From an uncultured bacterium (GTDB lineage Bacteria; Armatimonadota; Hebobacteria; CAIYQO01): 64,000 nt of DNA. The translations under genes were made by a program, and so were the position numbers. Location: assembly GCA_964472305.1 (NCBI GenBank), contig CAYYJR010000001.1, forward strand, positions 25,346-89,345, given 5' to 3'. This document shows positions 23,862-26,186 of this stretch, in pieces (within the stretch, counting starts at the first letter, position 1; the number at the start of each line of letters is the position of its first letter). The notes beneath the pieces were generated by a model. The model made no database searches, had not been told where the DNA came from, and saw nothing but the letters and a program-made list of their open reading frames with translations.

Positions 23862-26186
23862 TTATCCCTGTGACATATCCGCATGCTTCATCCGCAAGGC
23901 GGAGATCAGCTCCACCGCTTTTTCCGGAGTCAGGTTGCCGTGCACTTCGCCGTTGATCAGCAGGGCGGGAGCCAGGCTGCAGGCGCCGATGCAGTGCGCT
24001 TCGGAAAGCGAGAACAGGCCGTCGGGGGTGGTATCGCCGGGCGCGATACCCAGTTCGCCTTCCAGCGCGGTCAGAATGCGCGCGCTGCCGTTGACGTAGC
24101 ACGCGGTGCCCACACACACCGCCAGCCGGTATTCGCCGCGGGCGGTCAGGCTGAAGTGGTGGTAGAAGGTCGCCACGCCGTAGACCGTCGCCGCCGGCAC
24201 GCCCACGCGATAGGCGACGAAGTCGAGTACGTGTTGCGGCAGGTAACCGAAGAGATCCTGCGCTTCATGCAGCACCGGGATCAACGCCGATTCCGGGTGT
24301 TCCGCGTTGCGGTTCGCCTCGATGGCCGTGCTCAACCGCTCCCACCGATCGCCGCACCCGCCGTGGCAACCCGCGCAACTCTCGACGGGCGGCTCCACCG
24401 CGACAGGGGTGGCGTGCAGCGACGGCGGCAGGATGCCGCGCGGTGCCTTGGGCGTGAAATGCGTATGGAACAGCTCGTGCGCTTTTGCACTCAACGGCGC
24501 GCCCACGTACTCGGTGTAGATGCGCTGCACGCTCGGATTCTCGTGCGCAAAGCGGAAATCGCGCTCGCGGTCGATGTTGTAGAGCACCTCGGCACGCCGG
24601 CGCAGCACTTCGCGGTCCAGCGGCACGCTATTCGCTCCCGCATACGGTTGGCCGCCGCCGCCGATGCAGCCGCCCGGACAGCCCATGATTTCAACATACT
24701 GGTATTTCGCGGCGCCGCTGGCCACCTCGGTCATCAGGTGGTGCGCCGCGCTCAAGCCGTGGCCGACTGCGATGCGCAATTCCTGGCCGCCGAAGTCAAT
24801 CACCGCTTCACGCACGCGGTCCATGCCGCGCACCGCTTCAAATTCAATGGCGGGTGGCGCTTCGCCGAACTTCAACGCGTAGGCCGTGCGCAACGCCGAT
24901 TCCATCACCCCGCCGGTGGCGCCGTAGATGGCAGCGGCACCGGTGCTTTCACCCAGCAAGTCATCCGGCTTCTCCGGCTTCAGCACGGGCAGGTTGATGC
25001 CCATCGCCTTGCACATCCACACCAGTTCGCGGGTAGTGATAACCACGTCGGTGTCGGGACGGCCATCGGTCATGAGCTGCGGGCGCGCGGCTTCCCACTT
25101 CTTCGCCGTGCAGCACATGGCGGTGACCACGAAGATCGACGCCGGATCCCAACCCATCTTTTCCGCGTAATAGGTGCGGATGAGCTTGCTGACGATGCTC
25201 ATCGGCGATTTCACGGTGGTCAGGTGGTCGAGTTGGCCGGGGTAAAATTGCTCGATGAACTTCTGCCACGCCGCCGAGCAGGAGGTGAGCATGGGCAATG
25301 GCCGGCCGGTCTGCCCGCTTAACCGTTCCAGCAACTCGCTCGCTTCTTCGTAGGTGCACATGTCGGCGCCGAATTGGGTGTCGAACACGCGCTCGAAACC
25401 GAGCAGTCGCAGCGCTGCCACTGTCTGTCCCTCCAGATTCGTCCCCACCGGCAACCCGAAGCCTTCCCCGATAGCCGCGCGCACCGACGGCGCGAAGTGC
25501 ACCACGGTGTGTACGTGGGGATTGGCCAGCGCCTTCCAGACTTCCTCGGTGCGGTTGTGTTCCAGGAATGCCGCGGTGGGACAGACGTTAATGCACTGTC
25601 CGCAGCCGGTGCACACGCTTTGCTCGAACGGCAATTCGTGCGCGGGCACCACATTGCTGCGAAAGCCGCGGTGCGCCACGCCCAGCGCGGTGACGCCCTG
25701 CACCTCGGCGCACACGCGCACGCAACGGTGACAGAGGATGCACTTGTCCGGGTTGCGGATCACCGACGGCGAGCTGTAGTCATCCTCGAAATGCTTCTTT
25801 TCACCGGAGAACAGCCGCTCGCGCACTCCCAGGCTGTAAGCCAATCGCTGCAATTCGCAGTTGCCGTCGCGTTCGCAGCACTGGCAGTCCTCCGGGTGGT
25901 TATCCAGCAACAGTTCGCAGATGTCGCGGCGAATCTGCCGAATTTCCGGCGTGGTGGTGCGCACCACCATGCCCTCCGTCACCGGGTACGAACAGGAGGC
26001 AACCAGCTTGCGCATCCCCTCGACTTCGACGACGCAAATGCGGCAGGCGCCGTCGATGCTCAGTAGCGGATGATAGCACAGCCGCGGCACCTGCACGCCG
26101 ATCTTCTCCGCCGCCTGCATGATGGTCGTCCCCACCGGCACGCGCACCGGACGCCCGTCAATAGTCAAATTTATCGAAGTTGGCAT
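23862..26186 (-). CDS. hydA: [FeFe]-hydrogenase catalytic subunit (HydA-like) with fused C-terminal NuoE/HoxE-like [2Fe-2S] domain
   Basis: N-terminal 2Fe-2S ferredoxin-like domain, HPEDCQCCERDGNCELQ cluster, two 4Fe-4S ferredoxin motifs (CILCHRCVRVC, CTGCGQCINVC), H-cluster domain (EIMGCPGGCIGGGGQP), then thioredoxin-like NuoE-type domain (CVGTAC...CIGAC). Start taken at ATG 26186. Confidence 0.85.
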   Translation of the reverse strand: MPTSINLTIDGRPVRVPVGTTIMQAAEKIGVQVPRLCYHPLLSIDGACRICVVEVEGMRKLVASCSYPVTEGMVVRTTTPEIRQIRRDICELLLDNHPEDCQCCERDGNCELQRLAYSLGVRERLFSGEKKHFEDDYSSPSVIRNPDKCILCHRCVRVCAEVQGVTALGVAHRGFRSNVVPAHELPFEQSVCTGCGQCINVCPTAAFLEHNRTEEVWKALANPHVHTVVHFAPSVRAAIGEGFGLPVGTNLEGQTVAALRLLGFERVFDTQFGADMCTYEEASELLERLSGQTGRPLPMLTSCSAAWQKFIEQFYPGQLDHLTTVKSPMSIVSKLIRTYYAEKMGWDPASIFVVTAMCCTAKKWEAARPQLMTDGRPDTDVVITTRELVWMCKAMGINLPVLKPEKPDDLLGESTGAAAIYGATGGVMESALRTAYALKFGEAPPAIEFEAVRGMDRVREAVIDFGGQELRIAVGHGLSAAHHLMTEVASGAAKYQYVEIMGCPGGCIGGGGQPYAGANSVPLDREVLRRRAEVLYNIDRERDFRFAHENPSVQRIYTEYVGAPLSAKAHELFHTHFTPKAPRGILPPSLHATPVAVEPPVESCAGCHGGCGDRWERLSTAIEANRNAEHPESALIPVLHEAQDLFGYLPQHVLDFVAYRVGVPAATVYGVATFYHHFSLTARGEYRLAVCVGTACYVNGSARILTALEGELGIAPGDTTPDGLFSLSEAHCIGACSLAPALLINGEVHGNLTPEKAVELISALRMKHADMSQG

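Follow-up and report, generated by a model that had tools for sequence, protein, structure and literature searches.

A probable two-gene HydABC/Hnd-type [FeFe]-hydrogenase of an uncultured Armatimonadota bacterium belongs to a clade with an apparently undescribed variant of the H-cluster motifs

Results

The hydA-hydB locus

We analyzed 64,000 nucleotides of DNA (hereafter the window) from an uncultured bacterium of the Armatimonadota (contig CAYYJR010000001.1, positions 25,346 to 89,345), whose minus strand carries hydA, the gene for an [FeFe]-hydrogenase catalytic subunit, with hydB adjacent and upstream. In the list of open reading frames (ORFs), the minus-strand ORF 23862..26225 opens mechanically at a TTG, while an ATG at 26186 gives a HydA of 774 aa that is identical (100%, full length) to the database protein P0001. 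The true start of hydB is probably the Met of MTLAMTPLERL. The features of the two genes are the following.

23862..26186, minus strand: hydA-hydC fusion gene (774 aa) with a NuoG-like F-domain, H-domain, small-subunit-like segment, linker and NuoE-like domain (ORF list, Pfam, TIGR02512, PDB matches)
25542..26177, minus strand: F-domain, residues 4-215, with [2Fe-2S], His-ligated [4Fe-4S] and two [4Fe-4S] sites (Pfam Fer2_4, NADH-G_4Fe-4S_3, Fer4_Nqo3)
24654..25511, minus strand: H-domain Fe_hyd_lg_C, residues 226-511 (Pfam E 7e-79; predicted local distance difference test, pLDDT, ~90 or higher over most of the span in the AlphaFold2, AF2, model)
25266..25286, minus strand: L1 motif TSCSAAW, with Cys303 as proton relay, Ser304 at the Cys-ligand position and Ala305/Ala306 for Pro-Gly (translation; alignment to CpI and Acetobacterium woodii HydA1)
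25092..25118, minus strand: L2 motif MCCTAKKWE, with Cys358 for Pro, the [4Fe-4S]H ligand Cys359, and Lys362 and Glu365 kept (translation)
24645..24692, minus strand: L3 motif EIMGCPGGCIGGGGQP, with the ligand Cys503, the bridging Cys507 and Gly502 for the usual Ala (translation)
24447..24611, minus strand: small-subunit-like segment Fe_hyd_SSU, residues 526-580 (Pfam E 2e-21)
24309..24446, minus strand: flexible linker, residues ~581-626, with the non-conserved, Cys-rich CAGCHGGC (AF2 pLDDT <50 at residues 584-591; sequence varies among relatives)
23895..24308, minus strand: NuoE/HydC-like thioredoxin-fold [2Fe-2S] domain, residues 627-764, with the ligand pairs CVGTAC and CIGAC (Pfam 2Fe-2S_thioredx)
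26334..28577, minus strand: hydB, with two N-terminal thioredoxin-like domains, a NuoF-like flavin mononucleotide (FMN)/NAD(H) module and a C-terminal 2x[4Fe-4S] ferredoxin domain (Pfam, NCBIfam)

HydA scored 265 bits against PF02906 (threshold 22.1) and 447.3 bits against the group A model TIGR02512 (NCBIfam cutoff 405.95). Its N-terminus is of the M3 type with NuoG-like Fe-S domains (Pfam), and all Cys and His ligands of the F-domain were invariant in the alignment of relatives (alignment A2). At the other end of the protein, the 2Fe-2S_thioredx match (E 2e-47) covers profile positions 7-144 of 145, that is, a full-length domain, in agreement with the initial annotation, which had proposed a fused C-terminal NuoE-like [2Fe-2S] domain. 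Between the two lies the linker motif CAGCHGGC (24357-24380, minus strand; residues ~603-610). Armatimonadota relatives have 2-4 Cys in this place and share no conserved Cys pattern, and a metal site there is therefore doubtful.

Deviating L1 and L2 motifs

The residue register was taken from gap-free HMMER alignments of the window HydA to CpI, Thermoanaerobacter kivui HydA1 and A. woodii HydA1. Cys303 aligns with CpI C299, the proton relay; Ser304 with C300, a [4Fe-4S]H ligand; Ala305/Ala306 with P301/G302; Cys358 with P354 and Cys359 with C355; and Cys503 and Cys507 with C499 and C503. Direct translation gave L1 TSCSAAW, L2 MCCTAKKWE and a canonical L3, exactly as first annotated, so that HydA departs from the textbook group A signature (TSCCPxW, MPCxxKxxE, ExMxCxxGCxxGGGQP) in L1 and L2 and conforms to it in L3. 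An altered first coordination sphere had also been claimed, and one deviation qualifies as such: Ser304 stands in place of the L1 ligand in the canonical set of four Cys ligands to [4Fe-4S]H.

This L1 Ser change is not new and is explained by published work. In the A. woodii HydABC complex, Ser301 takes the place of a Cys ligand to the H-cluster cubane, and HydA1 is fully active with a normal Fourier-transform infrared signature (Katsyv et al. 2023, PMC10021017). The PDB sequence of A. woodii HydA1 reads TSCSPGW. Ser was found at the L1 ligand position in ~20% of putative hydrogenases (Kertess et al. 2017, PMC5855289), which surprised these authors because engineered Ser, Asp or Ala at the L1 Cys of Chlamydomonas reinhardtii HydA1 led to loss of the cubane and of all activity, this Cys being the sole ligand that could not be replaced. 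Ser is likewise common at this position in the group A3 protein BfuA (Zheng and Huang 2024, PMC11406978). In our sample of representatives of 50%-identity clusters, TSCSP with MPC occurred in ~19 of 150. As ~13% of these representatives, and A. woodii HydA1 as well, break L1, the textbook signature is not truly defining for group A. The initial annotation had named identical motifs in characterized hydrogenases as a reason to abandon its reading; among such enzymes a precedent exists for the Cys-to-Ser change, in the solved and active A. woodii HydA1, and none was found with an L2 MCC or an L1 AA/SA.

A clade defined by Cys354 and its partners

The pair TSCS[A/S]AW and MCCTAKKxE recurs in 113 of the 120 nearest homologues (58-100% identity to the window HydA), and the L1/L2 deviation is therefore neither chance nor a sequencing error. 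In these 113 members of what we call the MCC clade, S300, A302, M325, C354 and G498 (CpI numbering, also below) are invariant and position 301 is Ser or Ala. Cys occupies position 354 in every member (113/113), versus Pro in all 119 non-clade sequences tabulated. Equally invariant are C299, E279, E282, R286, K358, E361, M353, M497, P231 and P324, together with the remaining Cys ligands C355, C499 and C503, while position 319 is Ser or Thr across the clade and Thr in the window HydA. The window protein has the whole catalytic-type set, namely the bridging Cys, the relay Cys, the E279/E282/R286/319 path, K358 and M353/M497.

The L2 Cys-for-Pro change, the Ala at L1 position 6 and the Gly before the first L3 Cys thus form a conserved clade signature, apparently undescribed. 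No hydrogenase paper came up in full-text searches for TSCSAAW, TSCSSAW, MCCTAKK, MCCxxK or TSCSxxW; HydA motif diversity is also treated in subscription-only papers outside the scope of these searches, in which a prior mention is possible. A search for TSCSP found a Melainabacteria paper only. Among the 150 cluster representatives listed, P0016 was the only one with the clade signature. When one genome per GTDB species was scanned with the motifs as a guide, the signature was located in at least 265 loci, nearly all in metagenome-assembled genomes (MAGs), from Armatimonadota, Planctomycetota (Phycisphaerae, Sedimentisphaerales, Anaerohalosphaeraceae), Omnitrophota, Endomicrobia (Elusimicrobiota), Margulisiibacteriota, Auribacterota and others.

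A protein from outside the window, P0121, deserves separate mention: it is predicted to have 4122 aa with seven separate H-domain matches (~45% identity), and represents a giant multi-hydrogenase ORF or else an artefact of assembly or gene calling.

Coupled changes around the cubane

A further search for homologues started from P0038 and added a large TSCSPGW/MPC sister population and rare intermediates, giving a combined family of 210 sequences. The states at positions 300-301-302/354 were distributed as follows.

SSA/C: 111 sequences
SPG/P: 53 sequences
SAA/C: 39 sequences
SSG/P: 4 sequences
CPT/C: 2 sequences
SPG/C: 1 sequence

Residues 302 and 354 therefore pair as A/C (150), G/P (57), T/C (2) and G/C (1), and never as A/P. 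Position 498 follows the same division, G498 going with C354 and A498 with P354, except in two of the four SSG/P sequences, where G498 stands with P354. Throughout the sequences tabulated from four protein searches, position 354 was strictly Pro or Cys, with no Ser, Arg or other intermediate.

Bootstrapped neighbour-joining trees, from which the motif columns had been removed, placed Pro354 lineages within Cys354 groups at least three times (90-100% bootstrap): P0038/P0039 group with Margulisiibacteriota MCC sequences (100%), P0291 is nested within a Cys354 group with 93% and P0322/P0366 with 90%. In P0038/P0039, compared with their MCC sisters, positions 301, 302, 354 and 498 have all changed together. 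The SPG/C sequence, P0313, is the sister of an SSA/C sequence (84%). The number of switches is an estimate of lower confidence, as the deep backbone of the tree is weak and neighbour-joining is crude. Since the co-changing residues 301/302, 354 and 498 flank three of the four ligand positions, they likely form a structurally coupled network around the cubane.

We also considered whether packing could explain these exchanges. The residue volumes add up to nearly the same total in the two states (P+G+P 285.5 Å3; S/A+A+C ~286 Å3), but this is suggestive only, and the idea was rejected: it fails once position 498 is included and leaves the Cys-only replacement unexplained.

HydB, operon structure and maturation genes

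Published features of bifurcating beta-subunits are an Ala/Glu and a Met in the NADH site, a Phe near FMN, GGPSG and extra Fe-S domains (Losey et al. 2020, PMC7311640). A regular-expression search showed every one of them in the window HydB: NADEGDPGAFMDR with Ala and Met, GAGAFVCGEE with Phe, GGPSG, and extra Fe-S motifs in the form of a C-terminal CxxCxxCxxxC, present twice, and an N-terminal Cx4C...Cx3C. In the HydB N-terminus (27813-28577, minus strand), the first thioredoxin-like domain has three Cys only (C60, C92, C96) and the second has the full Cx4C...Cx3C.

Synteny was compared across those 74 related loci in which hydA is near-complete. The common layout is a small thioredoxin-like [2Fe-2S] gene, hydB, hydA, in some cases hydG, and hydC (NuoE). 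hydB adjoins hydA in 68 of the 74 loci, and a separate NuoE gene was found in 62 of them, directly after hydA or hydA-hydG, either adjacent or at most 3.5 kb away. The small thioredoxin-like domain at the HydB N-terminus is a separate small gene in most relatives. Fusions of this domain to HydB and of HydC to HydA were seen only in L001-L003, the Armatimonadota subclade of the window. Since NuoE is a separate gene elsewhere and is fused only in these three loci, the C-terminal domain of the window HydA represents a simple hydA-hydC gene fusion. Consistent with this, the operon and the 64-kb window hold no separate hydC, and no second NuoE or NuoF gene was found in the window. The adjacent HydB, the NuoG-like M3 N-terminus of HydA and the fused HydC together make up the gene set that defines group A3 HydABC/Bfu.

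As for maturation, 41 of 80 related loci have a HydG-like ORF on the same strand immediately behind hydA or hydC, and one such hydG was confirmed as TIGR03955 (450 bits, cutoff 312). In the MAG locus L008 (8931-10460), the hydG located between hydA and hydC falls into two reading frames, probably through a frameshift or an assembly error.

Other genes around the locus

Three further genes of the window lie close to hydA and hydB. The first two are given for context only, and the third is unrelated to the hydrogenase.

28635..29117, minus strand: Lrp/AsnC-family regulator upstream of hydB (Pfam AsnC_trans_reg, HTH_24)
23051..23743, plus strand: OmpR-type winged-helix DNA-binding regulator, convergent with hydA and 118 bp from it (Pfam Trans_reg_C, GlnR_1st)
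20941..22932, minus strand: 663-aa protein, an unusual fusion of ankyrin repeats and an FGE-sulfatase (formylglycine-generating-enzyme) domain

The N-terminus of the plus-strand regulator matches the atypical GlnR receiver and not a standard receiver. In 15 of the 74 related loci (including L006, L010, L011, L029, L032 and L043), many of them from Planctomycetota, hydA is followed 3-4 kb downstream by a PhoB-like response regulator, and in L011 a PnpS/PhoR-like histidine kinase was confirmed beside it. These are probably neighbouring phosphate-regulon genes rather than a means of hydrogenase control. A PhoB/PhoR pair as a conserved hydrogenase component was rejected, as orientation and identity differ from those of the window regulators.

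Discussion

Proposed function of the two-gene system

Taken at the level of sequence, the window HydA is probably the catalytic subunit of a HydABC/Hnd-type [FeFe]-hydrogenase with a full H-cluster, linked to NAD(P)H and probably to ferredoxin (bifurcating/confurcating), and encoded as a two-gene system. It most likely works as an enzyme that produces or consumes hydrogen. HydB carries the small thioredoxin-like [2Fe-2S] protein at its N-terminus and HydA the NuoE-like HydC at its C-terminus. The predicted enzyme would bind a complete H-cluster in which Cys507 bridges to the 2Fe site and Cys359 and Cys503 ligate the cubane, while Cys303 would relay protons along the intact Glu/Glu/Arg path. 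Electron bifurcation or confurcation with NAD(P)H and ferredoxin is suggested by the signatures of HydB and its domains.

As to the fourth ligand of the cubane, Ser304 is slightly more likely than not to ligate [4Fe-4S]H via its oxygen, the arrangement solved in A. woodii HydA1. The precedent comes from a protein that is 44% identical to the window HydA, and serine ligation is further favoured by the retention of Ser300 in 150 of the 152 sequences that have Cys354 and either Ala or Thr at 302, as well as by the easy interconversion of the Pro354 and Cys354 configurations. With Ser304 as ligand, Cys358, Ala306 and Gly502 would be second-shell residues that evolve together and by which the [4Fe-4S]H site is repacked and tuned.

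Several observations weigh against this picture of a Ser-ligated bifurcating enzyme. A CxxxCxxC filter and tblastn with a HydG query detected neither hydE nor hydF nor hydG in the 64-kb window, and no obvious radical-SAM candidate for hydE or hydG. The NCBI name of close relatives, 'NADH-dependent, group A6', implies no bifurcation. We found no biochemically characterized member of the MCC clade, nearly all members being known from MAGs. The strict choice of Pro or Cys at position 354, which requires two nucleotide changes, is more than simple packing predicts. Finally, the engineered Cys-to-Ser change at the same ligand position of C. reinhardtii HydA1 abolished stable cluster binding (PMC5855289), so that tolerance of a Ser ligand cannot be taken for granted.

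Alternative readings

The two last points bear on a ligand swap, which we regard as a serious possibility with somewhat less than an even chance of being right. Here Cys358 would be the fourth thiolate, the cubane would sit on the tandem Cys358/359 together with Cys503 and Cys507, and Ser304 would be demoted to a hydrogen-bond donor. Ligation by tandem Cys is known from cluster N2 of respiratory complex I, and a thiolate is the better ligand. The swap would account for a Cys354 that is kept in 113/113 clade members in spite of the two-nucleotide step from Pro, and that co-varies with residues beside the other ligands, as seen in the 302/354 pairs and in G498. It also fits the behaviour of Pro301, which is lost along with the appearance of Cys354 where position 300 is Ser. 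Of the 59 sequences in which residue 300 is the presumed ligand, 55 retain Pro301 (53 SPG/P and 2 CPT/C), the remaining four being the SSG/P sequences. Engineered L1 Cys-to-Ser fails in C. reinhardtii HydA1, and the loop that holds the L2 Cys is flexible (PMC5855289).

On the other hand, serine ligation is proven for A. woodii HydA1, and Ser300 is unchanged in the 150 of 152 sequences mentioned above. The well-supported nesting of Pro354 lineages (at least three times) means that each switch would need a change of ligand. Moreover, P0034/P0036 combine Cys300 with Cys354 and P0313 combines SPG with Cys354, so that Cys354 is not tied to the loss of the L1 ligand. A mixed or hemilabile binding of the cubane takes up the small remainder of probability beside serine and cysteine ligation. 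If the swap were true, the [4Fe-4S] subcluster would sit naturally on tandem L2 cysteines instead of the universal L1 Cys, with co-evolved changes at 301/302, 354 and 498 to stabilise the swap, and this state would toggle repeatedly, among close relatives, with the Ser-ligated A. woodii-type state, giving two interchangeable cubane anchors after the loss of the L1 Cys.

Whichever residue closes the cubane, it is unlikely that the enzyme uses NADH only and does not bifurcate, in the manner of Syntrophus aciditrophicus HydAB or Syntrophomonas wolfei Hyd1ABC. The NCBIfam model NF040763 ('NADH-dependent, group A6') is indeed the top-scoring model for the window HydA, aligning over residues 5-579, and many relatives, both of the MCC type and of the TSCSPGW/MPC type, carry its name; fused subunits, too, occur in the non-bifurcating S. 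aciditrophicus HydAB (PMC7311640). However, the score of 756.2 bits is below the curated cutoff of 765, the adjacent HydB has all the bifurcating residue patterns of Losey et al. in addition to the C-terminal 2x[4Fe-4S] and N-terminal [2Fe-2S] domains, and the nearest solved structures are bifurcating HydABC complexes. We also noticed that the full product name, 'NADH-dependent [FeFe] hydrogenase, group A6', is given to relatives whose HydB bears the published bifurcating-type signatures; this name may mislead on cofactor coupling.

Sensory hydrogenases (HydS, groups C/D) have a C-terminal PAS or signalling domain, and their proton-relay Cys and proton path are replaced. The initial annotation had allowed for a sensory enzyme, and this reading, or that of a catalytically degenerate paralogue, now appears very improbable: departure from the textbook L1/L2 motifs is the one point that speaks for it, whereas Pfam found no PAS or other signalling domain in the window HydA, Cys303, both Glu and the Arg of the proton path are conserved, the architecture is of the M3 type with HydB and HydC partners and a bifurcating-type HydB upstream, hydG is co-operonic in 41 of 80 relatives, and all H-cluster contacts are under purifying selection across several phyla. 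The window HydA is real and intact, belongs to the known HydABC/Hnd class and is very probably functional.

Significance

In [FeFe]-hydrogenases, both redox potential and catalytic bias are determined by the [4Fe-4S] subcluster of the H-cluster. A large natural clade does without the L1 Cys, although this Cys is irreplaceable in C. reinhardtii HydA1 (PMC5855289), and the co-varying replacements are candidate compensating changes that could enable a Ser-ligated or tandem-Cys-ligated H-cluster. They may be of use in enzyme engineering and in understanding how bifurcating hydrogenases are tuned. For annotation, the textbook L1/L2 motifs are unfit for calling such genes non-functional or sensory. 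We therefore describe a known enzyme class with what is apparently an undescribed active-site variant, in which the L1 Ser has a known precedent while the L2 Cys and its partners seem new.

Comparison with known systems

The closest relatives of known structure are bifurcating enzymes. Among PDB sequences, the best matches of the window HydA were T. kivui HydA1 (E 5e-166) and A. woodii HydA1 (E 3.5e-160), and the same two proteins took the top ranks in a Foldseek search with the AF2 model (TM-score 0.90, normalised to the target).

A. woodii HydA1 (PDB 7Q4V/7Q4W/8A5E) resembles the window HydA in being of the M3 type, having Ser at the L1 Cys-ligand position and working with a NuoF-like HydB and a NuoE-like HydC. 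It differs in having Pro-Gly after the Ser, MPC in L2 and Ala before the first L3 Cys, where the window HydA has AA, MCC and Gly. In A. woodii, moreover, HydC stands as a subunit of its own, whereas that of the window is fused to HydA. T. kivui HydA1 (PDB 8A6T) is the best overall sequence match but has the canonical TSCCPSW and MPC.

Thermotoga maritima HydA (PDB 7P5H/7P8N), which aligns with the window HydA over 773 columns, also ends in a [2Fe-2S] thioredoxin-like domain. In the T. maritima complex a separate HydC exists besides this short C-terminal domain of HydA, whereas the C-terminal domain of the window HydA is a full-length NuoE homologue.

The tetrameric, NADP-linked bifurcating hydrogenase HndABCD of Desulfovibrio fructosovorans consists of NuoE-like, small thioredoxin-like [2Fe-2S], NuoF-like and HydA modules. 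By these subunit roles the window encodes the same four modules, in the order thioredoxin-like, hydB, hydA and hydC, fused pairwise into two genes. In most clade members the four Hnd-like modules are four separate genes, and the Joint Genome Institute labels several relatives HndD.

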